DNA of 32,000 bases. It comes from an uncultured delta proteobacterium. GTDB lineage: Bacteria > Desulfobacterota > Desulfobaccia > Desulfobaccales > 0-14-0-80-60-11. Shown here in pieces: positions 3,670-19,700 of this stretch (the stretch's first letter is position 1; each line of letters starts with the position of its first letter). The notes under the pieces are model-generated. The model ran no database searches, was not told where the DNA came from, and worked only from the letters and a program-made list of their open reading frames with translations. Location of the stretch: contig CAVPBF010000004.1 in the NCBI GenBank assembly GCA_963701845.1, forward strand, positions 571,853-603,852, in the 5' to 3' direction. The position numbers and the translations under genes are program-made.

Positions 3670-5195
3670 TTAAGAGCAAATTTTTTCAATGGCAGCCTTG
3701 ATCTGGCAGGCTCTCCAGCCGAAATCGGTCAGGCAGGCCACGCCTTCCTTAATATAAGCCGCGTCATCAGGGTCGCGCAACAGGTCGACCACCAGCGCTC
3801 GGGCGGCAGCCTGGAGCGCGTCCAGCAGGTCTTTTATTGGCGGGATAGAGATGGGCGTCAAAGCAGAAGAGGATGGTCAGGTCTGAGTTTTTGGCCAGGT
3901 GCACCGCCTGTTGAATTTCTGCCGCCGCCGGCTCGATGGAGACGATTTGAATCGTGGGGTTGAAACCGAATTTCTGAAACTCCTGCCGCACAAATTCCTT
4001 TTCCGGCAAGACTTCCTTTTCGATCATGATCTGCGCATCTTGAGCCGGGAAAATTGCGGCAAGATCACGCCAATGCTTGGTGCTGCGTGCCGCAGCGGCA
4101 GCAATTTTCTCTCATCTTGGAGAACCTGGACGGATTCACGGCAGATTCTGGCCGCCAGCGGGCGCCGGCTGGTTCGGCCGCGGGCTCTCCCCCGGCAAAT
4201 CTTTGGTTCTCGCTTTAATTTCAAGGTCTTCGATCCGGTCGACGCTCTCCTCCAGTTCTTTCAGGGGCAGGTCGCTTGCTTTTATAGGCCTCGAGCAAGT
4301 TTATCGTAAACCTCTTTCTGGGCTTGGAGGTCATGACAAACCAGCAGCAGATCATGTCCCGCCGCGGCAGCTAAGACCCCCGCGTCGCCGATGGGGCAGA
4401 GCGCTTTAATCGCGCCCATTTCCAGATCGTCGCTGGCAATGACCCCCCGGAAATTGAGCTCACCTCTAAGGTAATCGTAAATAATTCTTCTGGAAAAGGT
4501 GGCGATCTTGTTGGGGATCAGGATCGAGTTTGGGATAGTGGGGATGAGAAGACATCACCAGATCAACGCCGGTTGCAATCGCCTGCACAAAAGGCTTGCA
4601 GATGCACCTCCTCCATCTCTTGCCAGGTGGAGTCGATGACCGGCAGTCCCAGATGGGCATCCACTGGGGCATGACCCTTGCCGGGAAAATGCTTGGCGCA
4701 GGCTGACAGGCCGCCCCGTTGCATGCCGGCAATCCGCGCCGCGCCCATTCCGCCACCAAGCGCCAATCTCTGCCGTAGGCACCGAATCCCGATATTCGGG
4801 CTGTAGGCCTCGGTCAAGACATCGAGCACCGGCCCCAGATTCACATCCAGCCCCAGCCGGCGCAGTTCTTTGGCCTCGATCTCGCCCTGCTGCCTGGCAT
4901 AGTCGAGGTTTCCGGCGGTCCCCACCGCCAGATTGTCCGGGAACACGGTAATCCCGTCCCGGAACATGATGACCCGTCCGCCTTCATGGTCCACCGTCAC
5001 CAGCAGTTTGCGGCCGAGAGCCTCTTCCAGATCGGCAATCAGTTTTTTAAGTTGCGGCGGAGAGTCAAAATTGATCCGGTAGAGAATCAGCCCGCCGGCA
5101 TGCAGCTCCTGAAAATGACGGACAATCTTCGGAGTGATCTTGGTTCCGGGAATGCCGATGACCAGCCGTTCTCCCACTAGTTCTGCTAATTTCAT
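3670..5195 (-). pseudogene. GH3 beta-N-acetylhexosaminidase (NagZ-like), multiply frameshifted
   Basis: GH3 motifs are spread over at least four reading frames: VTVDHEGGRV, KHFPGKGHAPVDAHLGLPV, VQAIATGVDLVMSSHPHYP, LRGELNFRGVIASDDLEMGAI, AAAGHDLLLVCH and a C-terminal domain ending at 3670. Shifts lie near 4780, 4745, 4600, 4510 and 4290, with more downstream. Confidence 0.8.
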
Positions 5196-5982: not shown

Positions 5983-6108
5983 GGCGCGCCTAGAAATAAT
6001 CCATAAAATTCGAACCAGCCATCTTAATATCACCTATCTGAGCCTATTTCTCGCAATTTTTGCAGCTAACAATGCAAAAATCTTTTTGGTACAATAGCTT
6101 GGCTCTCT

Positions 6109-7639
6109 ATGGAAATCCAAACCCTTTTTTCCAGCGGCAGCAGTCTGACCTGGCAGGATTACTCGGTTCTGTCAGTGATTCTCGTCTTGGTGATTTTTGT
6201 CGGCTTTTATTCTGGCAGAGAAGAAAAATCCACCAACGACTTTTTCCTGGGGGGAGAAAAATCCCCTGGTGGGCGGCTGGTCTGGCGTTTGTCGCAGCCG
6301 AAATCAGCGCCCTCACCCTGATTGCGGTGCCCGCCATCGCCTATATGGAAAACTGGGAATATGCCCAGTTTTTTATCGGCGATTTTCTGGCCCGGGTCGC
6401 CATCGCCTTTCTGTTTATCCCGGCTTTTTACCACTATAACTGCACCTCTATTTATGAATTTTTAAAATACCGCTTCGGACCGGAAACCCAAATCGCCGGC
6501 TCGATCCTGTTTTTCATCACGCGTCTGTTGGCTTCCGGCGTCCGGCTGATGGTCGCTTGTCTGGCGGTGAGCATCTTAATCGGCTGGCCTATCCTGCCGA
6601 CTATTGTGCTGTTTTCGGTCATCTGCATTCTCTACGTCGCCTGGGGCGGGATCAAGGCGGTAGTGTGGACCAACGTGATTCAAGGCCTGACCTACGTAAC
6701 TGCGGGGACGGTGGCCATCGGTTTCCTGCTCACCCACATCGACGGCGGCGCCGCGGCCGTGCTGGCGATTGCCGGCGCGCGCCGGAAAACTGAAAATCTT
6801 CAACTGGGGACCGGGGCTGGCGGCAATCGGGATCGGGAGCCTTCCTGAAGAGCCTGTTCACGGATCCCAATCTCTTGGTGCTGGCGACTTTGAATGGCTT
6901 TTTTGGCTCAATGGCGGCCTTTGGGACGGATCAGGAGTCCATGCAGCGACTCCTGACGGTGGAAACGAGACGAGAAAGCCAGAAAACCATGCTGCTGACC
7001 CCCATCGGCAGTTTTCTGATGATGATCATCTTCCTCTCGGTTGGCGCCTGCCTTTATGCCTTCTATGCCCAGCATCCCGGGATGCCTCTGCCGGCAAAAT
7101 TGGACAAAATTTTTCCGCATTTTATCGAGCAGGCGATGCCTCCATACCTGCGAGGGCTGATGCTCTCGGCGCTTGTGCTGGCGAGCTTTGACACGCCTTT
7201 AGGTTCCCTGACCGCTTCCTTTGTCACGGACATCTATCGTCCGGTGCTTTTTAAGTCGGGAACTGAACGCCACTATCTCTTGATTTCCCGAGTCTGTGTG
7301 GTGGTTTTTGGCATTATCCTGGCGTTCATCGCCTTCATTTTCAGCCATTTTGAAAAATTCCTCTGGCTCGCTTTCAAGATCGGCGGGGTCACCTACGGCT
7401 CTTTACTGGGGGTTTTTCTCCTCGGTCTGCTGACCAAAAGGCGCTGCAACCGGGTCAATGTCGCGGCCATGGTTCTGTCCGCGGTTGGCATGCTGGTTCT
7501 GCTGATTCTTTCCGAGACGCACATTTTTCCGCTGGGCTGGACCTGGCTGTTGTTGATCGGCACCTTTTTGACTTTTGCGACCGGTTGGCTTTTTGGCAAA
7601 CCAGCCGAGAGCGCCGCTGACCTCCCTACCCAAAACTGA
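6109..7639 (+). pseudogene. Sodium:solute symporter (SSS) family transporter, frameshifted
   Basis: The N-terminus (STNDFFLGG) is in one frame and RKIPWWAAGLAFVAAEISALT... in another; that shift is at the G6 run near 6248-6253. Further shifts lie near 6776 and 6840. The C-terminal part (FGTDQESMQRLL...) is in the 6875 frame. Confidence 0.8.
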
Positions 7640-7759: not shown

Positions 7760-7815
7760 TTGGTGCCGGAGGCCGGACTCGAACCGGCACAAGGTTGCCC
7801 TCGGGGGATTTTGAG
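7760..7815 (-). repeat. att-type direct repeat: 3' half of tRNA-Leu(CAA), copy 1
   Basis: The minus strand reads ctcaaaa (anticodon loop, CAA), tcccc, a long variable arm, gccgg-ttcgagt-ccggc (T-arm), then ctccggc-a-cca. It is identical over 56 bp to 19645-19700. No D-arm or 5' acceptor strand follows. Confidence 0.9.
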
Positions 7816-8484: not shown

Positions 8485-8751
8485 ATGTCAGTACCCGCAT
8501 CTACCGGAGGCATCGGCCGGACCTTGATTGTTGGCATCGGTGGCTGTGGTGCCGAGGTAATCAAGAGGGTACGTCGGTTTCTCATCGACCATTTCGGTTG
8601 TTTTGAGAATATCCCTATTGTCCGGTTTCTTTGCCTCGATACCGATCCTCATTCGTTTCGCATGCTGGCCCAAGAAGTTGAGGAAGGCATCTGTCGGCTT
8701 CGGAGAGCTTTGACGTCCGTATCCCTGACGCTTCTGAGTTTATTATGGTGA
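8485..8751 (+). pseudogene. N-terminal fragment of a tubulin/FtsZ-like GTPase (Tubulin_2-like)
   Basis: TLIVGIGGCGAEVIKRVRRFL...VRFLCLDTDP resembles the G-loop start of prokaryotic tubulin-like conflict-system GTPases. Only about 60-80 aa are present before the frame breaks. Confidence 0.5.
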
Positions 8752-11022
8752 AACTACAACATAGAACATCTTGGCGTAACCTCTTAAGGACCTTCTGGAG
8801 GGGGAGGTTGAGGCCACGATGGCAGGATTATCAGTGGTCATTTATTGGCGGAATAGCTCTTGGGTCATTATTTTTGGGCGTTTGGGGATTCCAAATTTAT
8901 TTTTCGTCGAAAAATGAATTGCGCTCTGTTTCTGACCTGATCTATTTGGCTTTGCAGTTGTTCAATTTGAATTCCGGGGCGGTTACTGGGCCGAAACCAT
9001 GGCAGTTGGAGGTGGCAAGATTGTCAGCCCCGACGATAACCGCCTATGCCGCCGTAAAGGCCTTGGCAGTGATCTTTCACGAGCAGATTAAACTCATTCT
9101 CCTAAAATTTCTCAAGGGCCATGTCATAGTATGTGGTATGGGCAACAAGGGCTTCTTGCTGGCCAAGGGGTTTTATGATCAAGGCTACCGCGTAGTGGTA
9201 ATCGAACAAAATAAGGATAACCCCAGGATTGCGCTATTCAGAGAACATGGTGCCATTATCATAGTCGGCAATGCTGCAGATAGAGAAATGCTGAAAAAGG
9301 CCCGGGTTCGTGAGGCAAAATACCTCCTTGCCGTATGTAAAGAAGATGGAGATAACGCCCAAATAGCCATCTATGCTCAGGAACTTATCAATTGCCTCAC
9401 CAAGCATCCCTCCAGCAACATAGTGACCTGTCTGGTACATATTACGAACCCCGAACTCTGCAATCTTCTAAAAGAGCAAGAGATTTTGGCCGGAAAGGTC
9501 GATTTATTCCGGATGGAATTTTTTAATGTCTTTGAAAGCGGTGCGAGAGAATTGATAAATGAATTCCCCGGGTTCACGGAACTGGCCGAGGAAGCGCCAC
9601 ACTTGATGGTGGTTGGCCTGGGATCATTGGGCACAAGTCTAATAATTCGCGCTGCCTTGAATTGGAGATTGGCTCGGGGAAACCATGATAAAAAACTGCG
9701 CATCACCATGATAGACAAAGATGCAGTCCAGAAAAAGGAGTACCTGGACTGGCAGTACCGCCAGCTTAATGATTTCTGGGATCTTACTCCGGTGCCTGTG
9801 GAAATTAACTCACCAGAATTTCTCCAGGGGAAGTTCCTCTCAGAGAGTCATGACTTTTATTTCCTGTCCTGCGTATATGTCTGTCTTGATAATGATTCTG
9901 TTGCGCTCACTGCTGGGTTGGCAGTTTATCAGCATCTCAGAGAACGAAAAATCCCTATAGTAGTTCAGATGAGCCATGATGCCGGACTGGCTTCGCTCTT
10001 GCGAGTTGGGGGTGCCGAGAAAGGCAGCTTCGAGAACCTGCATGCTTTTGGGTTGTTTGATCGAACCTGCACGCCTGACCTGCTCTTTCGCGGGCACCCA
10101 CGAGACTCTATCCAAGGCTATCCATCGGGACTACGTTCGTAACCATGAAAATTTGGGACTAATCATAGAGACCAATGCTTCGTTAGCTTCCTGGGAAGAT
10201 TTGTCTGAGGACCTTAAAGAATCGAACCGTCGTTCAGCCGATGAAATCGGCAGGAAATTGCGAGCAGTCCACTGCGAGGTAGAGCGACTGACGGATTGGA
10301 ACGCCGAATTATTTGAATTCACGCCGGAAGAAATAGAAGTAATGGCCAAAATGGAACACCATAGCTGGATGAACCAACTGAATAAAGAGGGCTGGACGTT
10401 TGCATCGGGACCAAAGGACCTGAAAAAGAAAACCCATCCAGCGTTGGTAATATGGGAGGGACTCTCCAAAGATTTTAAGGATAAAAATCGTGAAAGTGTC
10501 CGTAAAATCCCCGTCCTTCTGGCCGGAGTCGGCTTTCAAGTTCACCGCAAGTGGCCTAATATTCGAGAGAAACTGGCTCGCTATATCCATGAGGAATATC
10601 TCAAGACCCAGCGGGAATGGGGTGAGACCCGGGAGACCAATCCTCACATGGTTCCATGGGAACAACTTCCTGAAAACATTAAGGACTCAAACCGCAATCA
10701 AGCTGACGACGTTAATCACAAACTCAGTGCCATCGGTTGCGGCCTCGAGAGGTTAGCTCCGGCGACTCGTCCTTTTCAATTTAGCCCTGATGAAATAGAA
10801 TTCTTGGCCAGGATGGAGCACGATCGCTGGATGGCAGAGAAAATTCATGATGGCTGGGTTTACGCTCCCGGGCCAAAAGCCCCGGGGAAAAAGACCAATC
10901 CTTATTTACTTCCTTGGGAACGCCTATCAGAAGATATTAAAGAGTTGGATCGCGTCCCGGTTCTTAAACTACCTGATTTTCTTGTCAAAGTAGGGTTACA
11001 GATCTTTCGTTTTAAAGAATAG
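8745..11022 (+). pseudogene. Membrane-anchored TrkA-N (NAD-binding) / tandem RyR-domain protein, one frameshift near 10088
   Basis: Has N-terminal hydrophobic helices. Two Rossmann GxGxxG segments are present (VIVCGMGNKGFLLA, MVVGLGSLGTSL). The frame switches between ...CTPDLLF and GTHETLSKAIHRDY. Two RyR-like units follow (EIEVMAKMEHHSWMNQLNKEGWTF...KNRESVRKIP and EIEFLARMEHDRWMAEKIHDGWVY...ELDRVPV). Confidence 0.7.
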
Positions 11023-11166
11023 AAAGGTTTATTCCCGAGTATGTCGTTATTGAAGTGACCTTGGTCTACCTTGCATTAAACAAGAGGATTGGTCGCCAAA
11101 AAGGAATTTCTTCGGGATCGGACCTCGCACCTCATCAATAATAAATAATTTATCTGGAGGGTATTG

Positions 11167-12102
11167 ATGTTACAAAGTGATGATTTTAATCAATCCTCAA
11201 TATCTAGTAAAAAAAAACCCGCTATTGAGACGATTATTGATACCCATGTTCATCTCGTGACCTTAAACCTTCCTGGAGTGACTTTGGATCAGGCTCCTGA
11301 TGGAACCTCCTTTCAAAGTCCGCCCGAGCTACTTGCAAAGGTGATCCAGACTGAAATGCAAGAAGCGAACATCGAACACGTCCTGGGTATGCCTAGTCCA
11401 ACGGCGGATGAGAATGATCCACTTGGAGTTGCGGGTACGCGACATCTGGCTGCGTTGGTTCCGGGATTGCATCCGGTCGGCTTTGCCAATCCGGAGCGCA
11501 TCGATGAGAAACATCTCGAAAGGGTCGAGGAATCGCTGAGACTTGGTGACGTGATTGCCATTAAGGCGTACCTCGGCTATTTACACCATTACCCCGATAG
11601 TCCTGGTTATCATCCCTATTATCGGCTGGCAGCCAAGTATAAAATTCCGGTAATCTTTCATACGGGAGATACTTATTCCCATCTAGCCAAGCTCAAGTAC
11701 GCTCATCCCTTGACAATTGATGAGGTGGCGGTGGACTTTCCAGAAACCAACTTCGTTATCGCTCACTTGGGGAACCCCTGGTTAGCCGACACGTCCGAAG
11801 TGGTTTACAAGAACAATAAACCAGGAATCAGAGAGAATGTTTGGGCTGATCTCTCGGGCCTCATGGTTGGGTCTGCATCCGATTATGAGAATTATCGTCA
11901 AGAAGGATACTTCGAGGATTTAGGCAAAAAGGTGTGGGAGTTAATCGATTTCACGGAACGGCCTGATCGTTTCTTATTCGGAAGCGACTGGCCATTGTCC
12001 CCGATGAAGGTTTATAGAGACTTTATCGGCGAGCTAATTCCGGAATCATATCACAAAGCGGTGTTTTACGATAACGCCAAGGCTTTGTTTAAGCTCGTTT
12101 AA
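11167..12102 (+). CDS. Amidohydrolase-2 (TIM-barrel metal-dependent hydrolase) family protein
   Basis: Contains IIDTHVHL (HxH), IFHTGD, AHLGNPW and FGSDWP motifs. A GGAGG lies 6 nt upstream of the ATG at 11167 (the ORF is open from a TTG at 11164). Confidence 0.75.
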   Translation: MLQSDDFNQSSISSKKKPAIETIIDTHVHLVTLNLPGVTLDQAPDGTSFQSPPELLAKVIQTEMQEANIEHVLGMPSPTADENDPLGVAGTRHLAALVPGLHPVGFANPERIDEKHLERVEESLRLGDVIAIKAYLGYLHHYPDSPGYHPYYRLAAKYKIPVIFHTGDTYSHLAKLKYAHPLTIDEVAVDFPETNFVIAHLGNPWLADTSEVVYKNNKPGIRENVWADLSGLMVGSASDYENYRQEGYFEDLGKKVWELIDFTERPDRFLFGSDWPLSPMKVYRDFIGELIPESYHKAVFYDNAKALFKLV

Positions 12103-12141
12103 CTTATGGATCTTCTCGGAGTCGGTCCATTGAGAGACTTA

Positions 12142-12287
12142 GGTGGCTGCACGTACAAGGAAGGGGTGTCCTTGGGGAAGTTCGCGGCACCGGAGGACGA
12201 CGGCCGCTTCGCTGAGATGTTGTGCGATGCCACCATCGCCTGGTGCTGCTCATGAAGGGCGTGAGCCAACGTCTGGAGAAGAAATGA
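12142..12287 (+). pseudogene. GC-rich 3' fragment of a second deoxyhypusine-synthase-like gene
   Basis: GGCTYKEGVSLGKFAAPEDDGRFAEMLCDATIAW, then after a frameshift LLMKGVSQRLEKK. This aligns with the C-terminus of the 12700-13782 product (SGCTYKEGVSWGKFLPIEEGGKFAEVLCDATIAWPILLKAVTQRIDKR). Confidence 0.75.
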
Positions 12288-12491
12288 ATTTGTAGCGCCG
12301 GCGCCCGCCGGCGAAGGAGCCACCGAGGGCGGCGATACTACATTCACTCTTTTTTCCTATCGTCCGCCGGGGAGCCCCGCCCGGTAAGCCAAGCCTGGCA
12401 AATGGGAGTCCGGGGAATTGACTGTCCTGATGGTCTGGGGCGGCAAGATCTTCTTGGCGCCAACCGGCACCTTAGCGTAATTTATAAAAAA

Positions 12492-12520
12492 TTGACTTCC
12501 CAATGGAGGTAAGTTAATTT
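12492..12520 (+). promoter_or_regulatory. Possible sigma70-type promoter for the DHS-like operon
   Basis: TTGACT, a 17-nt spacer, then TAATTT, about 180 nt upstream of the ATG at 12700. Confidence 0.3.
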
Positions 12521-12699
12521 AGCTGGATGATTAAGACTATAGTGCACTGCGGTGAACAGCCGCCTGGAGAAGGACATTGTCGACATCAATGCGGCCCTGT
12601 TCGCCAATCTATAGACCCTCATCATGAGCGGCCGCAAGCGTGTCCTGCCATCAAAGTAACAACCTGCCAGACTTCTCAAATCAAATTTAAGGAAAAAAC

Positions 12700-13782
12700 A
12701 TGCGGAGAAAAGCTATAGAATTCCACGATGGAGCCAAAGATGGTCTCAAGCCGTTGGTTCCTTTGGATTTGAATAACATTCACGATTCTGATGAATTGCT
12801 TAAAGCAATGAGCAGCACTGCTTTTGGGGGGCGTTCGTTGGGGGAAGCGGCTGATGTGCTCACCGAAATGGTAAGGGACCCCGATTGTTTAACTGTGGGT
12901 ACCTTTTCTGGTGCCATGAGCGTGGCCAAAATGGGATTGCTCATTTGTGAAATGATCGACCGCGGTTGGCTTAAAGCGGTAGTCTCAACAGGAGCACTGA
13001 TAGCTCACGGATTTATTGAAACCCTTGGCCGGGCACACTACAAATGTCCGGCAAATCGGTCGGATAGGGAATTATATTTACAGGGTTACAACCGCATTTA
13101 TGACACCCTGGAGATGGAAACCAACCTAGATTACGCTGAGGCCATTTTTCGGGAAGTTTTGAGCGGCTTGGACCGAAATCAGGTCTGGTCCTCCCACAGC
13201 CTTTGCAGGGAATTAGGAAGATATCTTGCAGACCACACCACCAGTCCCGGGATTTTGCGGAATGCTTACTTGAAGGGAGTGCCGGTGTTTATTCCGGCTT
13301 TTACCGACTCGGAAATGGGACTGGATATGGCCACCTATATGATGCGGGATGCTTTGCGTAATGGGAAAGAAATTCCCGCCGCCTTGACCGATTGTTCCCT
13401 GCAATTCAACCCGTTCCTGGATTTAGGAGCCTATACCCAGATGGTGTTACCCGCGAAGAGGCTGGGAATTTTCACCATCGGCGGCGGCGTACCTCGAAAC
13501 TGGGGGCAACAGATGGCTCCTTATCTGGAATTGCTTAATTCCCGTTTAAATATAGAGGTTCCGGAGCTTCGCTTCCATTATGGAGTAAGGCTCTGCCCGG
13601 AGCCAGCCCACTGGGGGGGCCTAAGCGGTTGTACATATAAGGAGGGGGTTTCCTGGGGAAAATTTCTCCCTATAGAAGAGGGGGGGAAATTCGCCGAGGT
13701 TCTTTGCGATGCCACTATCGCCTGGCCTATTCTTCTTAAGGCAGTTACTCAGCGAATTGATAAAAGACAAAAAAATAAATAG
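12700..13782 (+). CDS. Deoxyhypusine synthase (DHS)-like NAD-dependent enzyme
   Basis: TFSGAMSVAKMGLL...VVSTGALIAHGFIE...RIYDTLE...VPVFIPAFTDSEMG...IGGGVPRNW...EGVSWGKF follows the DHS family pattern. This includes the SWGK lysine position. Confidence 0.8.
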   Translation: MRRKAIEFHDGAKDGLKPLVPLDLNNIHDSDELLKAMSSTAFGGRSLGEAADVLTEMVRDPDCLTVGTFSGAMSVAKMGLLICEMIDRGWLKAVVSTGALIAHGFIETLGRAHYKCPANRSDRELYLQGYNRIYDTLEMETNLDYAEAIFREVLSGLDRNQVWSSHSLCRELGRYLADHTTSPGILRNAYLKGVPVFIPAFTDSEMGLDMATYMMRDALRNGKEIPAALTDCSLQFNPFLDLGAYTQMVLPAKRLGIFTIGGGVPRNWGQQMAPYLELLNSRLNIEVPELRFHYGVRLCPEPAHWGGLSGCTYKEGVSWGKFLPIEEGGKFAEVLCDATIAWPILLKAVTQRIDKRQKNK

Positions 13783-13788
13783 GTTAGC

Positions 13789-14766
13789 TTGCGGGCTAAC
13801 TTATCTTTAATGGCTGCCAGTGAAATGACCTTAGAACAAAAATCTAGTGAAAATGACGGTGCTCAAGTTATCAATGTCAGACATATCTTCAATGATATGG
13901 TTGATGAGTATGACGATTTATATGATTTATGGTATAGCTACCTCTTTGGTGAGATAGAGCGGGTTATCTTGGAGGAATTCGAGCTAACCTCTAATACCGG
14001 TCTGAATCCCCTCGCTATTGATGTGGGCTGCGGGACTGGCATACAATCCATCACCTTAGCTGCATTGGGATATAAAGTTGTCGGCTTCGACATTGCCGAT
14101 AAACTTATCGAGCAAGCTAAAGTTAAAGTGCAACGAGCCGGAAATAAGCACGAATTTCTGGACATTGATTTTTTGATTGCCGATGGTGAAGCGTTACCTT
14201 TTGAGGATGCAGTCGCAGATTGTGTTAATTGCTGCGGTTCGACGCTCAGTTTTATCCCGAATTGGCGGCAAGCGCTCTCTGAAATGTCCAGGTGCCTTAA
14301 GCCTGGCGGCAGATTGATCCTGGAAGTTGAAGGCAAATGGAATTTTGACTTGTTTTGGGAAATTATCAATGCTATCGGTTTCAATGTCTTTGAGTATGAT
14401 GAACCCTTGCTGGATGCGCTCCAGCATCTCCGCCCGCCGTGGAATGTCGGGCACCATGTCGAATATCCCTTTAAATTGGAATCTGATGAAACCGTGACGA
14501 TGCCGCTAAGATTGTTTGCCGCCGCTGAACTCGAGAAAGAATTACAGCATGTCGGCTTGGTTCAAGTAAAGCGTTGGGGCCTGCATTCCTTGACCAATAT
14601 CATCCCCAGCACCATACTGCATGACTCTCGCCCAGGACCGCTGCTAAAAAAAATGTTTTCTCTTCTATCAAATATCGAGAGACGCTTTAACCAATTCCAA
14701 CCCTTGAACGCCTTCGGCTGCAGTCTTCTGGTAATTGCCGAAAAGAACTATGAGGTGGTTAAATGA
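13789..14766 (+). CDS. Class I SAM-dependent methyltransferase
   Basis: Contains motif I AIDVGCGTGIQS and post-I/II motifs VVGFDIA and LKPGGRLILEV. The start is uncertain (TTG 13789 or ATG 13810). The stop overlaps the next start (ATGA). Confidence 0.8.
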   Translation: MRANLSLMAASEMTLEQKSSENDGAQVINVRHIFNDMVDEYDDLYDLWYSYLFGEIERVILEEFELTSNTGLNPLAIDVGCGTGIQSITLAALGYKVVGFDIADKLIEQAKVKVQRAGNKHEFLDIDFLIADGEALPFEDAVADCVNCCGSTLSFIPNWRQALSEMSRCLKPGGRLILEVEGKWNFDLFWEIINAIGFNVFEYDEPLLDALQHLRPPWNVGHHVEYPFKLESDETVTMPLRLFAAAELEKELQHVGLVQVKRWGLHSLTNIIPSTILHDSRPGPLLKKMFSLLSNIERRFNQFQPLNAFGCSLLVIAEKNYEVVK

Positions 14767-16212
14767 CCGCTAATGGCCAAATAACTGAAAAGTTTGCGGA
14801 GATCGTTACCAAGGCGGCCCAATTTCTATGCGATAGTTATCATGATGGCAGTTGGGGTGCCACCAAGACCACGGCTATGACCATCTGGGCTTTGCAAGAA
14901 TGCGGGGTGGTGGGGAAGCATAAGGGTGTTTTTATCGAGGCCCTGGAGGAATTGATCGAAAAAGAAGGTACGGAGCTCCAAAAAGGACTCTCGTTTGATG
15001 AAGAAATCTGGGAGACGTCAGTGGTATTGATCGCCCTTGCCAAAGTAGATCAAGGGGAATTCAAAGAAAAAATAGAATTGATTAAAAAATGGCTCTTGTC
15101 ACAGATAAGTGAAACTGGGGATAATTTTAATGAAGAACCATGGGAAACCTTATGGGTTCTTACAGCATTATTTGAATCAGATCAAGTTGACGCTGATGAT
15201 TGGGAGATGGTTAAGAAGTGTATAAATTGGGTTTGGGACAAGAGGAATGCACAAGATGTTTTGATCTCTTTGCATAATATGGGGTTTTTACTAGCCGTAT
15301 TGAATTATGCAATAAACTATTCAATACGCAACCCTTCTTTTGATGACAGTGAAGAAATTGAATTGTACAAAAAAGCAGCCAATATTTGTAACAGTTATTT
15401 GATTAAGGAATTTCACGAAAATAAGAAAGCCGGTATGCTTTGGAGCAGCGAACCATGGAGTATCGGGCACATCCTGCATGGCATCACTGAATCTCCCCAG
15501 CGAATAAAATTTTTTAGAGAAGACAATTTAAATAAAGACATTATAAATTGGTATAAAGAAAGCTGGAATGATCCAACAGGGTTTGGCAGTGTTAAGAACA
15601 CGTGCGATACGTTAGTTGGACTGATGAAATATTACCTTAGTAGGGATGTTGAATACAAAAATGGGAGCCGATCCGAGGCAATAGACCGAATTGCAAAAAA
15701 TATTGTTTTAGAAGACGTGGATATACGATCCAAAAAAATGGTGGTATATCCTTTGTGGGGTAAAGGAGTAGAACCAAGAGAGAAAGAAATTGTTTTGTTG
15801 ATGCCGTTCAGTGAAAAATTTGATAAATTGGTAGATAGTATTAAAGAGATTACAAGCTTCAAAGAGCTCGAAGGATGGAGTGTGCGCAGGGCCGATGACA
15901 CATATGACGGAGAAGATGCCATTGATAATATATGGCGCCGTATCAATGCCGCGAGGGTTGTTATTGTGGAATTAACCCGTTTGCGTCCGGCTGTGATGTA
16001 CGAACTTGGGATTACACATACTACTAGGTAAAAAAGTTATTATGATAACTCAGTTTGATCCCAAAAAACTTCCGTTTAATTTAAGGAAACTCGATGTGAT
16101 AAGATATAAACACAATGATTTAAATGATGATGGTGGAAAAGAGAAATTCAAGGTTAAAATTCGTGACACCATAGTTCAAGTATTGAGAAGAAAAAAAGGT
16201 AAACTACAGTAG
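14763..16212 (+). pseudogene. alpha/alpha-toroid (prenyltransferase/terpene-cyclase-like repeat) protein fused to a TIR/nucleoside-2-deoxyribosyltransferase-like domain; 1-nt frameshift near 16020
   Basis: The N-terminus has repeats DGSWGATKTTAMTIWALQE, EIWETSVVLIALA and EPWETLWVLTALF. The C-terminus reads IVLLMPFSEKFD...ARVVIVELTRLRPAVMYELGITH, then in the next frame LLGKKVIMITQ...PFNLRKLDVIRY. Confidence 0.65.
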
Positions 16213-16358
16213 GGAGTAAGGCTCATAACAGGGCGGCCATTTTGACGGCTCACCCAATTACTGCACATAGAGCGGCTAAACCTAAGTAAATTCTACCATA
16301 ATCGTTGGAGCAAAGGCAATAAGCGTTAAAGATACTTCGCATTTACGGGATAAAATCC

Positions 16359-18161
16359 ATGCAAGTCTCTTCTCCCCCCTCCCCGCGCCTTGTTCTCCAT
16401 GTTGGCGTTACCGGTCACAGACCTTCCGGTCTTCAAGGAGGGGATGATGACATATTACGATCCAAAATTCGAGAAGTTCTATCGCTTATAGCTGGTGATG
16501 TTGAAAAAGTGTACAAGGCTTCTCCGGGAATATTCAGTTCTCTCCCTCCCATCTTGCGTCTCATATCTCCCCTGGCGGAGGGTGCCGACCGTATAGTCGC
16601 TGAAGAAGCTTTGGGTTTGGGATATGAACTCCAATGCCCTCTTCCCTTTGAACTCAGCCAGTACGAGCAGGATTTTGATTCTTCCGCGTCCCTTACTGAA
16701 TTTAGTTCCCTGCTGAGTCGAGCGACCACAATATTCGAATTAGATGGAGATCGTGAACAACGACGCTTGGCATATCAAGAGGTAGGCAGAACAGTTCTAA
16801 GCCAATCAGACATACTGGTTGCCATTTGGAATGGGAAGGAACCGCAGGGCCAAGGGGGTACAGGAGAGATCGTTCAAGAAGCCATCCAGAGAAAAATTCC
16901 TACCTGCTGGATTCAGGCCCAGAAGCCTCATCTTATAAATCTACTGGGATATTCGGGCAAACGGGAAAGACCCAGTTGGAATGAAGGGTTACCCCAATAT
17001 ATATCCAATCTGCTCTCTCTCCCCGCACTTAATCAGATTGGTTATGCAAGGAACAAAGAGAAATCCGACCTCAGCCAGGAATTCTTTTCAGAAACTGAAT
17101 GTAAAATAAATGTTGGGTTTCCCTTTAAGTTGTTTCGGGATTTATTGGGTGGAATGGGAATTAGCCGGCCGAAATTCAGAATGCCTGGTTTCGAAGAAGA
17201 AACGTTGGAAGAATGGCAAGAAGTCTGGAATACTTCGCCCGGACTGCCGTCATCCCTGATAGATCAGATAAATAGAGCATTTCTGCTCAAATTTGCGTGG
17301 GCCGATAAGCTGGCCAATTATTATGCTGATTTGTACAGAAGTTCTTTTATTGTTAACTATTTTTTAAGTGGCTGTGCGGTATTAGCTGCCTTGTTGGCTT
17401 ACCCGCTGGAGCTGGGCCATGCAGGTCAAGAATGGTTGGTTCTGACGGAAATTATCTTAATTTCTTTCATTATTCTGACCACATGGTATGGCAAGAGGAA
17501 GCGCTGGCACGAGCGATGGATCGATTACCGCTTTCTCGCCGAGCAATTACGACAAATGCGATTCTTGGCCCCCCTTGGGATATTACTCCCATCCTTTAGC
17601 ATCCCTGCACATCATGCAAATAATGATCTTCACAATAACTGGATAAACTGGTATTTTCGCGCCTCAGCGCGGGAAGCGGGGCTGCCCAATGTCCGAATTG
17701 ACCAGGCATACCTTGAAGCTGGTCGAACACTTCTCACGATAGGAGAGGTAGAAGGACAAATCCATTACCATGAAATAAACGCCAGCCGCTTTCATATTCT
17801 ATCTCATCGACTACATCATCTGGGATTATTGTTATTTGCATTGACTGGTATAGCCTGTTTATCGCACCTTTATTATCACGGTGAATACAGCCGGTGGCTA
17901 ACTTTACTCTCAGGAGTGCTGCCAGCTTTTGGAGCCGCCTTCGCGGGCATCCTGTTCCAGGGAGAGTTTCAGCGCCTGGCTCAACGTTCCGAAGCCATGA
18001 CCAGAGAGTTGGGGCGGATCAATAACAATCTGACAATCCTTCCCGAATTATCTCACGAAAATCTCTGCCTCATGGCCAACGAGGTCGCCAATATTATGAT
18101 AACTGAAGTACTCGATTGGAGGATTTTACTACATGACAGACCGTTGAATCTTCCAGGATGA
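16359..18161 (+). CDS. SLOG-like Rossmannoid domain fused to two SLATT-type 2TM modules (predicted ligand-gated membrane effector)
   Basis: The N-terminus has VGVTGHR...SPLAEGADRIVAEEAL...SDILVAIWNGKEPQGQGGTGEIV (LOG/SLOG-like GGxGT motif). Two hydrophobic helix pairs lie at about 17345-17490 and 17815-17960. The first is followed by an amphipathic RWHERWIDYRFLAEQLRQ and the second by an FQRLAQRSEAMTREL segment. Confidence 0.7.
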   Translation: MQVSSPPSPRLVLHVGVTGHRPSGLQGGDDDILRSKIREVLSLIAGDVEKVYKASPGIFSSLPPILRLISPLAEGADRIVAEEALGLGYELQCPLPFELSQYEQDFDSSASLTEFSSLLSRATTIFELDGDREQRRLAYQEVGRTVLSQSDILVAIWNGKEPQGQGGTGEIVQEAIQRKIPTCWIQAQKPHLINLLGYSGKRERPSWNEGLPQYISNLLSLPALNQIGYARNKEKSDLSQEFFSETECKINVGFPFKLFRDLLGGMGISRPKFRMPGFEEETLEEWQEVWNTSPGLPSSLIDQINRAFLLKFAWADKLANYYADLYRSSFIVNYFLSGCAVLAALLAYPLELGHAGQEWLVLTEIILISFIILTTWYGKRKRWHERWIDYRFLAEQLRQMRFLAPLGILLPSFSIPAHHANNDLHNNWINWYFRASAREAGLPNVRIDQAYLEAGRTLLTIGEVEGQIHYHEINASRFHILSHRLHHLGLLLFALTGIACLSHLYYHGEYSRWLTLLSGVLPAFGAAFAGILFQGEFQRLAQRSEAMTRELGRINNNLTILPELSHENLCLMANEVANIMITEVLDWRILLHDRPLNLPG

Positions 18162-18375
18162 TCCTTTTCATGGAAAAAGTTAAATAAAGAGGGATGTCCT
18201 TTGAAAGGGCCAATCATTATTTTGGCGCCATTTGACATTTAATAGGTTTATTGATAACGTTTACCATTAAAAAAGTTATTGGGCGTTTCAAACAACTATC
18301 CTGAACTGTCATGGATAATTGGTCCCGTGGATCTCCATGCATTTCTGGGTTGACTCAGCTGCCGAACATGAAATA

Positions 18376-18580
18376 ATGACTCCTGAGGAGGTCGCCCAAT
18401 ATCTCCGTAAAAGCCAGAGCTGGGTCTATAAGCACTGACGGGCGCTGGGCGGCAGGAAACTTGGGGGTTCTCTGTTCTTCCCCGGAAAGGAGGACCTCTA
18501 TGAGCATTTATTTTCAGAAGGGCCGGGGGTGGAAGCACGATTTCACCCTCCACGGGAAAAGGTACACGTCCCGCTACACA
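18376..18580 (+). pseudogene. Excisionase-type HTH gene with in-frame TGA
   Basis: MTPEEVAQYLRKSQSWVYKH-TGA(18436-18438)-RALGGRKLGGSLFFPGKEDLYEHL. The stop sits where a Trp (TGG) would be expected. The 3' end is undefined because of the downstream inversion. Confidence 0.55.
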
Positions 18581-19619
18581 CCTGCCTTAGCGCAAAGATT
18601 CTTGAGAACTTCACGCCGATCTATGAACTGCCCTGTCTGTCTCTTTCCTTTTTGGTCCACATAGGAATGCCAGAAGACCCAAGGTTTGGTCTTATCCCGC
18701 TCCAAAAACCTGCGCGACAGGATATGGTAAATTTTCTGAGTCATGGGCACTTTCCTTGGAGTCAAGTGGCCACCTCGTTTCTTGCGGGTGCAGAGCACCA
18801 CATACCGCTGTTCGAGGTTGATGTCTTCCCAAACAAGGCGGTTAATTTCGCTGACCCCATGGTATCCCTCAAAAGCCAGAGATAATCCTGAACTTCTGGA
18901 TCAGCCGGAGCGATCAAATCGTCGATGTCCTCTGGTGATGGTACATAGTTAAGCCTCTTGGCCATGGGCAAGAAACTTAGACCGATTACGGGATTCTCGG
19001 TAAGCCACCCCTTCTTTTTCCCAAAATTAAAGGTGGCCTTGAGATAGCGAATCTCCTTATTTGCAGTAAAGACGGAAACGCTGCTCCTCTCCAAGATGAA
19101 ACACTCCACCATATCGCGGGAAATTTGGCTGCACGTAAGCCCTTTCCACTGCCTAATCCACCTCCGAGCCGATACTTGATAGGTCAGATAGTAACTTTCG
19201 GAGTTATAAGCCTCAACATGGTCTAATCTCCTATTTACCAGATCCAAGAAATCCATGTCGGTCGGGGTTGTCTCCGTCGGCCTCTCTGGTGGTGGGTTCA
19301 GTATCTCCTCCGGTTTTTGGATTTCGACCAGCTTGGCCTCTCTTTTGGTTTGGATATAAGGCCGTTTGGTTTCCATGCCCTTCGGCATGCCGGGGCTTCG
19401 CTGATGGATCACTGCAACATTCCGCTTGGGTCCATCCAGCGTATCCTGGGCCATGAGAACCGAACTACTACCGAAATCTATCTCCACTCCATTAACCGAT
19501 CTGAGTTCGAGGCGATGGCGGTTTATGAACAGGCCAGGGGAAAGTCACACTCAGGTCGGAAAATCCACACTCAGATTCATACTCAGCAAAAGGAAAAGGG
19601 CTTAAGCCCGATGACCTAA
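18500..19619 (+). pseudogene. Tyrosine integrase with inverted central segment and a frameshift
   Basis: On the + strand the N-terminus is MSIYFQKGRGWKHDFTLHGKRYTSRY (18500-18577). The + strand C-terminus is RPFGFHALRHAGASL...GHENRTTTEIYLHS (about 19356-19619). The middle (about 18585-19355) is only readable on the - strand (IQTKREAKLVE...ANKEIRYLKATFNF...LLRDTMG / SEINRLVWEDINLEQRYVVLCTRKKRGGHLTPRKVPM...LCAKAGV), with a frameshift near 18830. Confidence 0.75.
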
Positions 19620-19644: not shown

Positions 19645-19700
19645 TTGGTGCCGGAGGCCGGACTCGAACCGGCACAAGGTTGCCCTCGGGGGATTTTGAG
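19645..19700 (-). repeat. att-type direct repeat: 3' half of tRNA-Leu(CAA), copy 2
   Basis: Identical over 56 bp to 7760-7815. It lies 25 nt from the integrase stop. The flanking sequence has no tRNA 5' half. Confidence 0.9.

Follow-up and report, generated by a model that had tools for sequence, protein, structure and literature searches.

A low-GC island in a 32,000-nucleotide stretch of contig CAVPBF010000004.1 from an uncultured delta proteobacterium (the whole stretch is called the window below) may carry a TIR-less, polyamine-linked variant of the NAD+/ADP-ribose (ADPR)-type anti-phage systems, a tentative reading that is given somewhat less than an even chance. Four co-directional plus-strand genes at 12700-18161 encode a DHS-like enzyme, an S-adenosylmethionine (SAM) methyltransferase, a toroid protein with a DrHyd/NDT-like domain (tNDT), and a membrane protein with one SLOG and two SLATT modules (SLOG-2xSLATT, gene 4; Table 1). 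Their coordinates in the first-pass annotation, which proposed a Thoeris-like nucleotide-signaling cluster, agree with a re-reading of the open reading frames (ORFs), and its interpretation is partly supported. The present reading rests on two observations. The toroid swaps its DrHyd domain for TIR-class domains in sister proteins, and three loci (the window, L001, and L016) combine receiver-type proteins and tNDT without a canonical TIR. The candidate unit also extends upstream to a TrkA_N-RyR gene that was absent from the first-pass annotation. The proposed unit of four genes does not hold in that form, as related loci add this transmembrane (TM)-TrkA_N-RyR gene, which is frameshifted in the window.

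Table 1. Features of the island and its borders in window coordinates
Feature	Coordinates	Strand	Basis
Left 56-nt direct repeat, att-like	7760..7815	-	Repeat search, 100% identity
Membrane TrkA_N (RCK-type NAD-binding) protein with RyR (R12-like) repeats	8745..11022	+	Pfam; tblastn
Amidohydrolase_2 gene	11164..12102	+	Pfam PF04909, E=1.7e-27
DS', decayed 3' end of another DHS-like gene	12117..12285	+	Translation; tblastn; blastn
DHS-like enzyme (DS), intact	12700..13782	+	Pfam DS, E=5e-74, 249.6 bits
Class I SAM methyltransferase, intact	13789..14766	+	Pfam Methyltransf_11, E=2e-23
tNDT, toroid (~residues 1-310) and DrHyd/NDT-like N-glycosidase domain (~335-482)	14763..16212	+	Frameshift repair; AF2 and Foldseek
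SLOG (YpsA-like) and two SLATT modules, four TM helices, intact (gene 4)	16359..18161	+	NCBIfam; AF2 and Foldseek; hydrophobicity scan
Tyrosine integrase, broken	18296..19619	both	Direct reading of ORF translations only
Right 56-nt direct repeat, junction with the adjacent prophage	19645..19700	-	Repeat search, 100% identity

The tNDT gene is found in the window as two ORFs (14763-16031 and 16006-16212), which belong to one gene that an extra base somewhere between 16012 and 16027 has split. Deletion of a single base yields a protein of 482 residues in which the conserved motif YELGITHTLGKKVIMI is read through, in line with the 1-nt frameshift described earlier for a TIR-like gene. The ATGA overlap between the methyltransferase and toroid genes likewise agrees with the coordinates. 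The fold of tNDT was read from an AlphaFold2 (AF2) model of the intact homolog P0001 (pLDDT 75.6) and not of the window copy, to which P0001 is 55% identical by BLASTP and 58% identical in a MAFFT alignment. P0001 starts with an alpha/alpha toroid that matches terpene cyclases, squalene-hopene cyclase, and the C3d TED in Foldseek (TM-scores of 0.5-0.59), and its C-terminal domain matches NDT, DNPH1, and the CMP N-glycosidase BcmB (TM-scores of 0.6-0.7). The earlier description as a toroid plus TIR/NDT-like protein stands for the toroid and the NDT-like fold, and the matches to TIR are weaker. In Pfam, the repaired tNDT gives weak NDT (PF05014, E=0.004), TED, and SHC matches, and phmmer finds no match for it in the PDB. 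The C-terminal domain combines a flavodoxin-like fold with a catalytic glutamate in an xxYELG-type motif, which places it in the NDT/DrHyd superfamily, and the glutamate of the YELG motif (E414) is invariant in the tNDT family. The invariant residues of the toroid are mostly tryptophan and acidic motifs (EVWDT, EPWET, and EPWSIG), and a toroid of this kind may be suited to binding an organic cation.

Proteins of this architecture are rare. Among 5.8 billion proteins, a word-indexed search turned up three full-length relatives of tNDT, and an exhaustive profile search of 1.84 billion representative proteins found about 15 clusters at 50% identity; the latter search returned the DrHyd domain alone in more than 25,000 proteins. 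A first scan of GTDB with tNDT patterns gave no match, and neither did a scan of viral contigs, so that there is no sign of tNDT being phage-borne. In an alignment that covers the catalytic NPNxxYELGIxH motif, P0001 shares 30% identity (E=3e-13) in its C-terminal domain with the N-terminal DrHyd domain of a protein from the Pseudomonas plasmid pA7J1. The plasmid protein is of the ThsI type, contains TPR-S, and precedes a ThsB_TIR gene; judged from its domains, the pair is of the type VIII Thoeris architecture (ThsI and ThsB).

The toroid is also found with other heads. It is fused to TIR_2 in P0144 and P0147 (1e-26) and to a CAP12/Pycsar-type TIR in L027, which is a Bacteroidetes metagenome-assembled genome (MAG) (8e-24). 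Since a common toroid carries DrHyd, TIR_2, and the CAP12/Pycsar-type TIR, DrHyd is interchangeable with TIR-class NAD-processing domains. P0240 and P0286 combine the toroid with a membrane anchor instead, and their genes are those of the arginine decarboxylase-DS-toroid-agmatinase operon described below. Toroid-only genes were found by a GTDB scan in two Ca. Methanoperedens MAGs and one Hyphomicrobiales MAG, each next to a methyltransferase of ~320 residues; in L029, an insertion sequence (IS) separates the two genes. The archaeal toroid-methyltransferase pairs adjoin AbiEii, MNT, and IS genes.

There are nine independent tNDT loci (window, L001, L004, L005/6, L007, L008, L015, L016, and L017), in which certain neighbors recur. 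A DS gene lies immediately upstream of tNDT in 4/9 (window, L004, L007, and L008), a RyR protein is found with it in 3/9 (window, L001, and L005/6), a SLATT protein in 2/9 (window and L016), an orthologous methyltransferase in 2/9 (window and L001), and a TIR protein in 1/9 (L005/6). The gene order is TrkA_N-RyR (intact), a 95-residue RyR protein, methyltransferase, and tNDT in L001, and TrkA_N-RyR (intact), tNDT, and a canonical TIR_2 protein in L005/L006. The tNDTs of the three loci with adjoining RyR are only 33-55% identical to each other. Downstream of the SLATT-tNDT pair, L016 (3377-6297) additionally harbors a DUF4062 protein and a TPR protein of 784 residues; DUF4062 is a TIR/NDT-like domain, and the two proteins may form a second signaling pair in the same locus.

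The methyltransferase is among these recurrent partners. The Pfam match (Table 1) bears out its assignment as a SAM methyltransferase. The gap of 6 nt to the DS gene that had been described holds with the TTG start, but with the ATG at 13825 the gap is 42 nt. The alignment to the L001 ortholog begins at this ATG, which is probably the true start. The window methyltransferase is 74% identical to that of L001 and 37-38% identical over ~310 residues (E ~1e-66) to the toroid-adjoining methyltransferases of Ca. Methanoperedens and the Hyphomicrobiales MAG, whereas a generic methyltransferase, used as a control, aligned over 37 residues only. Orthologs adjoin toroid genes in five loci from bacteria and archaea (window, L001, L026, L028, and L029). 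The possibility that the methyltransferase is a generic neighbor was rejected, given this full-length orthology across five toroid loci as compared to the generic control. Together with the four DHS-tNDT pairs among the nine loci, the five methyltransferase-toroid loci and the toroid gene inside a polyamine operon (see below) show that both enzymes are recurrent partners and not bystanders. The PDB neighbors of the two enzymes give no information on their substrates.

The DS gene connects the locus to polyamines. Its product was rightly identified as a DHS-like enzyme, as illustrated by the Pfam DS match and the catalytic-lysine motif SWGK, which is kept. It nevertheless falls below all NCBIfam equivalog cut-offs (best 232.8 bits versus 434; 171 versus 500 for the SpeY-type model) and, by these scores, is placed in a divergent DHS/SpeY clade. 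It is 75% identical to the tNDT-adjoining DS of L004 and L008, as compared to 30-32% for the canonical DS of L018/L021. SpeY enzymes, which are bacterial DHS homologs, couple two agmatines to N1,N9-bis(guanidino)homospermidine (diagmatine), from which a ureohydrolase forms homospermidine (PMC13625781). The window enzyme shares the DS fold and the catalytic-lysine motif with this pathway of arginine decarboxylase, SpeY, and ureohydrolase. Furthermore, the DS-tNDT pair of L004 lies beside an agmatinase gene, and the toroid gene of L018/L021 is found inside an operon of that kind: in L018-L021, the operon consists of pyruvoyl arginine decarboxylase, DS, toroid-TM, and agmatinase and adjoins mfd (in L018, an unrelated methyltransferase follows it). 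The differences are the divergence of the window DS, the lack of an arginine decarboxylase or ureohydrolase on the island, and the coupling to a methyltransferase and a toroid-DrHyd protein. The order of DS followed by toroid is kept across DS genes that are only 30% identical, which argues for a functional coupling to a polyamine-type molecule.

Remnants of further DS genes accompany this arrangement. In the window, the DS' remnant lies upstream of the intact DS, is 74-80% identical to DS residues 308-342 by tblastn, and matches the L008 remnant in blastn; its GC content is 61.6% as compared to 49.5% for the intact gene. L004 (6049-6270) and L008 (2338-2604) contain DS 3' remnants downstream of tNDT, which are open ORFs of 73-79 codons. 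In these two loci and the window, the remnants have a GC content of 59-63%, the intact DS 47-51%, and tNDT 35-39%; the agmatinase and sigma-54 activator genes that flank the L004 pair are at 63-64%. DS and tNDT are both foreign in GC relative to the high-GC remnant and have thus moved as a cassette, which seems, from these remnants, to have taken the place of the greater part of a resident DS in L004 and L008. One-sided homologous recombination and targeted insertion are candidate routes for the displacement. Apart from the DS remnant, blastn found no non-coding sequence common to the loci. A mere accident of the insertion site, that is, homology-facilitated recombination into a resident DS, was rejected as the sole explanation for the presence of DS, because the DS-toroid order recurs with the 30%-identical DS in L018/L021 and because the DS, methyltransferase, and tNDT genes of the window follow one another closely, with the ATGA overlap between the last two.

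The same genes could be taken as metabolic. DS, methyltransferase, and toroid would then form a polyamine or secondary-metabolite pathway in which DrHyd is a metabolic N-glycosidase or transferase (as in BcmB/MilB), and the island would be metabolic cargo. The housekeeping-looking arginine decarboxylase-DS-agmatinase operon near mfd that contains toroid-TM, the agmatinase gene next to the DS-tNDT pair in L004, and the biosynthetic BcmB among the best PDB matches of the small domain all fit this explanation, as does the bacimethrin pathway, which pairs an N-glycosidase with a methyltransferase. It is nonetheless improbable: sister proteins fuse the toroid to TIR_2 and to the CAP12/Pycsar-type TIR, which are hallmark domains of conflict systems, and the neighbors include RyR, SLATT, TIR, AbiEii, IS, and integrase genes. 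tNDT is moreover strongly foreign in GC, is located on islands, and is extremely rare with a patchy distribution.

The presumed receivers are the two membrane proteins that flank the triad. The AF2 model of gene 4 has a pLDDT of 92.4, and the 146-nt gap reported in front of this gene agrees with the coordinates. Residues 12-196 match the SLOG protein YpsA (2nx2) in Foldseek (E=1.4e-4, TM-score 0.67) and additionally DprA, ShosA, and TM1055; a Pfam SLOG match is absent from gene 4. The first SLATT module (NCBIfam SLATT_1, residues 313-403) passes its cut-off with 58.3 bits versus 41, while SLATT_4 at residues 470-570 stays below it with 19.4 bits versus 55, so that the second module is predicted mainly from the helices of the model and the hydrophobicity scan. 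In total, the protein is predicted to have four such helices that are hydrophobic. The SLOG plus 2xSLATT assignment is therefore upheld, with uneven support for its second SLATT module. The family comprises at least 884 members with the invariant glycine-rich loops G16/G19/H20/R21 and G166/G167/T168, and its nearest named homologs are from Thermodesulfobacteriota/Deltaproteobacteria MAGs. Homologs adjoin TIR genes in L009, L010, L011, and L014 (a Caballeronia plasmid), from which it follows that these SLOG-4TM proteins act in TIR-type signaling. In L010 (5237-10213) and L011 (5141-10207), which are Thermodesulfobacteriota MAGs, a SLOG-SLATT-like paralog (585-617 residues), SLOG-2xSLATT, and TIR-DUF4189 form a conserved set of three genes that stands in an otherwise housekeeping neighborhood and adjoins ribonucleotide reductase.

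The upstream TrkA_N-RyR gene is made up of two overlapping ORFs (8745-10142 and 9976-11022) with a frameshift near 10085-10095; tblastn against the intact L001 homolog of 574 residues puts the switch of frame at 10073/10078. The protein carries TrkA_N (Pfam, 9e-19) and RyR (3e-31, 107.9 bits); a hydrophobic helix lies at its N terminus, and it contains HxxW...(H/N)P...(D/N)R motifs. Among PDB sequences, the L001 homolog matches the RCK domains of KtrA/TrkA and Repeat12 of RyR, with a further, weak match to MthK 49-194. Between hydrophobic helices at the N terminus (window 8745-9100; L001 4194-4500), the motif IYLxxxLF...SGA(V/L)xG..PW.LE.AR is conserved; by direct reading it resembles a pore helix and loop, with SGA(V/L)xG and not a K+ selectivity filter. 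TrkA_N is thus shared with RCK-gated K+ channels of the MthK/Kch type, but the TVGYG-type filter was not found in the window protein.

RyR/R12-domain proteins were shown in 2026 to bind or hydrolyze 2'/3' cyclic ADPR (cADPR; PMC13232231). The RyR repeats in the window carry HWHN and HWND variants of the H/W/H/D motif, and all four residues are present in the small RyR proteins of L001 and L009, where, in a comparison of residue spacing, their intervals are exactly those of RyDEP (H75/W78/H100/D117). These small proteins match the Repeat12 of animal RyR2 with E=2e-52. The one of 95 residues in L001 (5961-6248) can be aligned over its full length to each Repeat12 and Repeat34 of animal RyR1/2/3 (E ~1e-52 overall), which is an unusually close likeness for a bacterial-animal pair. 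In L009 (4020-10098), a TIR-TPR protein (823 residues), a RyR protein of 94 residues, SLOG-2xSLATT, and a second TIR are encoded in a row, and this locus directly links the RyR, SLOG-SLATT, and TIR networks. The L009 RyR protein, which is host-encoded and has the full set of RyDEP-type residues inside a TIR system, could be a signal buffer or an off-switch. RyDEP and the proteins described here have the Pfam RyR domain in common, as well as the residue spacing in L001 and L009; the RyDEPs are, however, phage RyR(R12) proteins (PMC13232231), whereas RyR is here host- or island-encoded and is fused to a membrane RCK protein or stands beside TIR, SLATT, or tNDT. For this reason, the host proteins would be receivers or buffers and not phage counter-defense. 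No remnants of a small RyR or an arginase were found in the window by tblastn.

From these components we infer what the toroid binds, which substrate DrHyd uses and which product it forms, the reception of a signal by RyR and SLOG at this locus, and the function in defense. The core would be the co-transcribed triad of the divergent DHS/SpeY-like enzyme, its dedicated methyltransferase, and tNDT, flanked by two membrane proteins, TM-RCK-RyR and SLOG-2xSLATT, that have domains of types known to bind ADPR signals. Together, the first two enzymes of the triad would form a polyamine-type cation (diagmatine/homospermidine-like, possibly N-methylated) that is bound or monitored by the tryptophan- and acid-rich cavity of the toroid. 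Upon infection, the toroid would release or activate the DrHyd domain, which occupies the slot held by TIR in the sister proteins, and DrHyd would cleave the N-glycosidic bond of NAD+ or of a nucleotide. Subsequently, RyR and SLOG would read the ADPR-type product, whereupon the SLATT pores and TM-RCK-RyR, as a channel-like protein, would open, the membrane would depolarize, and the infection would be aborted. A more specific version is highly improbable and is drawn from analogy with the His-ADPR of type II Thoeris and the base exchange of NDT and CD38. In this version, tNDT would transfer ADP-ribose or a ribosyl group onto the (methylated) diagmatine/homospermidine-type cation, and the resulting polyamine-nucleotide messenger would gate the RCK-RyR channel and the SLOG-SLATT pores.

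The missing TIR gene sets the locus apart from known systems. None of eight proteins scanned at 8745-18161 has a TIR match in Pfam, and no TIR gene was detected in the window when four TIR proteins of sister loci served as tblastn queries, in disagreement with the TIR-like generator of the first-pass annotation. Its designation as Thoeris-like is right insofar as the locus belongs to the world of NAD/ADPR signaling. The locus is not a member of Thoeris, since the defining TIR is absent. Type VIII Thoeris consists of the ThsB TIR and of ThsI, which joins a "CMP hydrolase" to TPR-S, and uses canonical cADPR as its signal (10.64898/2025.12.03.692087). It has a homologous DrHyd catalytic domain, and in both ThsI and tNDT a helical-repeat sensor domain is joined to a DrHyd-type enzyme domain. 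The sensor of tNDT is, however, an alpha/alpha toroid and not TPR-S (PF20308 has no match in tNDT), and the order of domains is reversed. A TIR gene is moreover present in only one of the nine tNDT loci, and ThsI systems have neither DHS-like nor methyltransferase partners. Type VII Thoeris, which consists of a TIR and the SLATT effector ThsH, resembles the locus in that gene 4 bears SLATT and has homologs adjoining TIR, but differs in that the window lacks TIR. Gene 4 also corresponds, by description only, to the "SLOG and 4TM" candidate effectors of Thoeris (Table S2, 10.64898/2025.12.03.692087), as it combines SLOG with four TM helices (2xSLATT) and has homologs beside TIR. With ThsA of type I Thoeris (SIR2-SLOG) it shares SLOG as the presumed receiver of an ADPR signal; its output is a SLATT membrane module instead of SIR2, and its SLOG is YpsA-like by fold. 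Lastly, the TIR-DrHyd-SLOG Rossmannoid framework of Aravind and colleagues predicts that DrHyd domains act as NADases or cyclases equivalent to TIR and that SLOG sensors and SLATT pores are regulated by ADPR derivatives (PMC9503650). In contrast to the locus, the available literature on this framework does not mention a toroid sensor, a dedicated methyltransferase, a DHS-like enzyme, or a membrane RCK-RyR protein as components, and searches of the available literature gave no connection of either DHS-like enzymes or toroids of the terpene-cyclase type with TIR or with anti-phage systems. The SLOG, SLATT, DrHyd, and RyR components are of a known kind, and the toroid sensor, the dedicated methyltransferase, and the DHS-like partner are new.

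The homology to ThsI points in a second direction. tNDT could be a self-contained sensor-effector in which the toroid senses the trigger and DrHyd, as has been proposed for ThsI, uses up NAD+ or nucleotides, on an island that is a partly decayed defense patchwork. TM-RCK-RyR and SLOG-2xSLATT would then be separate ADPR-responsive effectors whose TIR generator is lost or acts in trans. The earlier pairing of an NDT-like generator with a SLOG sensor is accordingly one of two live readings, since the closest characterized relative of the NDT-like domain is in an effector, ThsI. This second possibility is rather unlikely, as RyR stands beside tNDT in three loci and SLATT in two, which is hardly expected by chance for so rare a gene, and as the receivers without TIR in the window, L001, and L016 leave tNDT as the sole candidate source of their ligand. 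It draws on the DrHyd domain of pA7J1, which is homologous to the enzymatic domain of ThsI and stands beside ThsB_TIR, on the SLOG-4TM homologs, which normally adjoin a TIR gene of which there is none in the window, and on the TIR protein that follows tNDT in L005. The two frameshifted genes and the broken integrase fit it as well.

Several findings speak against the proposed ADPR-signaling system, some of which favor the sensor-effector. Both the polyamine as ligand and the kind of signal are purely inferred, and the closest characterized relative of DrHyd, in ThsI, is described as an effector and not as a generator. The PDB neighbors of DrHyd are nucleotide N-glycosidases (BcmB, DNPH1, and NDT) and not ADP-ribosyl cyclases, and small stand-alone relatives are borne on plasmids with no signaling partners nearby. 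No gene for a receiver or effector accompanies tNDT in L004, L007, L008, L015, and L017 within the available DNA, which is mostly short contigs. Outside the window, the four genes recur across the nine loci in pairs only: the block is found in 0/8 of the other tNDT loci, and no locus besides the window combines all components. Two examples of "SLOG and 4TM" provided no defense in E. coli (Table S2, 10.64898/2025.12.03.692087). PADLOC (2023) recognizes no known system in the locus and returned, for eight island proteins, no more than a match of the methyltransferase to mad2, which is generic, and one to Cas10g, which is due to chance. Both tNDT and TrkA_N-RyR are frameshifted in the window, and toroid genes are also broken in L008 (878-2309) and L029 (2302-3221); such recurrent inactivation of toroid genes might reflect toxicity. 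On the other side, the genes are cargo of a low-GC island next to a prophage, tNDT is rare, yet its neighbors recur across nine independent loci, and the SLOG-SLATT and TIR genes of L009 adjoin a member, as judged from sequence, of the RyR family that is found beside tNDT.

If the proposed system is real, it would be a new input branch of TIR/Thoeris-type immunity, in which a toroid sensor with its own methyltransferase (in bacteria and archaea) and a DHS/SpeY-like enzyme are coupled to interchangeable NAD-processing heads (DrHyd, TIR_2, and the CAP12/Pycsar-type TIR). In the literature searched, polyamine metabolism is not tied to nucleotide immune signaling. A polyamine-nucleotide messenger, if true, would be a prokaryotic counterpart of cADPR-to-ryanodine-receptor signaling and would link innate immunity with the metabolism of polyamines. 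At this locus, RyR-domain proteins that the host encodes also stand next to NAD-processing enzymes, with one of the RyR proteins fused to a channel-like RCK membrane protein, so that simple bacteria could serve to test the long-debated sensing of cADPR-like ligands by RyR Repeat12. Further systems of this kind can be searched for with the methyltransferase-toroid pair as a marker.

The island itself is a segment of 11.8 kb with low GC that is bracketed by the two 56-nt repeats and has the integrase at its right end. Read directly on the minus strand, the repeats correspond to the part of a tRNA from the anticodon loop to CCA (T-arm GCCGG-TTCGAGT-CCGGC, ...GCACCA), with an apparent CAA anticodon loop, and are tRNA-Leu-like. 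ARAGORN and Rfam (gathering and E<=1) find no tRNA gene in the window, and the link to a tRNA therefore rests on this reading of the repeats. The claim of a tRNA-integrated island is thus retained. The intact tRNA must lie beyond the window and the adjacent prophage, whose genes (D5_N primase, capsid, and terminase) span 20.8-31 kb of the window. The arrangement suggests a tandem integration of island and prophage at one tRNA gene with its 5' half beyond the 32 kb. The N-terminal SAM-like part of the integrase is on the minus strand and frameshifted, whereas the plus strand encodes its catalytic C-terminal part (HxLRH...Y), which implies that part of the gene has been inverted. Promoter and terminator scans at the locus gave background levels.

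The damage to the island raises the question of whether the window copy is a non-functional relic of a decaying island, which would be compatible with any ancestral function. This is considered possible, if doubtful. The frameshifts in tNDT and TrkA_N-RyR, the broken and partly inverted integrase, the DS remnant, and two split genes elsewhere in the window (an SSF transporter and a GH3 gene) suggest such decay, but DS, methyltransferase, and SLOG-SLATT are full-length and have the residues that are conserved in their families. Furthermore, one base repairs each broken gene, and the contig is a metagenomic one of 2.07 Mb in which chromosomal genes are split too, so that the indels could be assembly errors. 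The two split genes lie outside the island: the sodium:solute symporter (SSF; 6060-7639) is in two or three frames, and only the N-terminal half of the GH3 gene (4563-5195) is present. Either the assembly contains many indels or the genome is accumulating pseudogenes. The island additionally carries an Amidohydro_2 gene, which has no counterpart in any related locus examined and is positioned between the RyR gene and the DS remnant.

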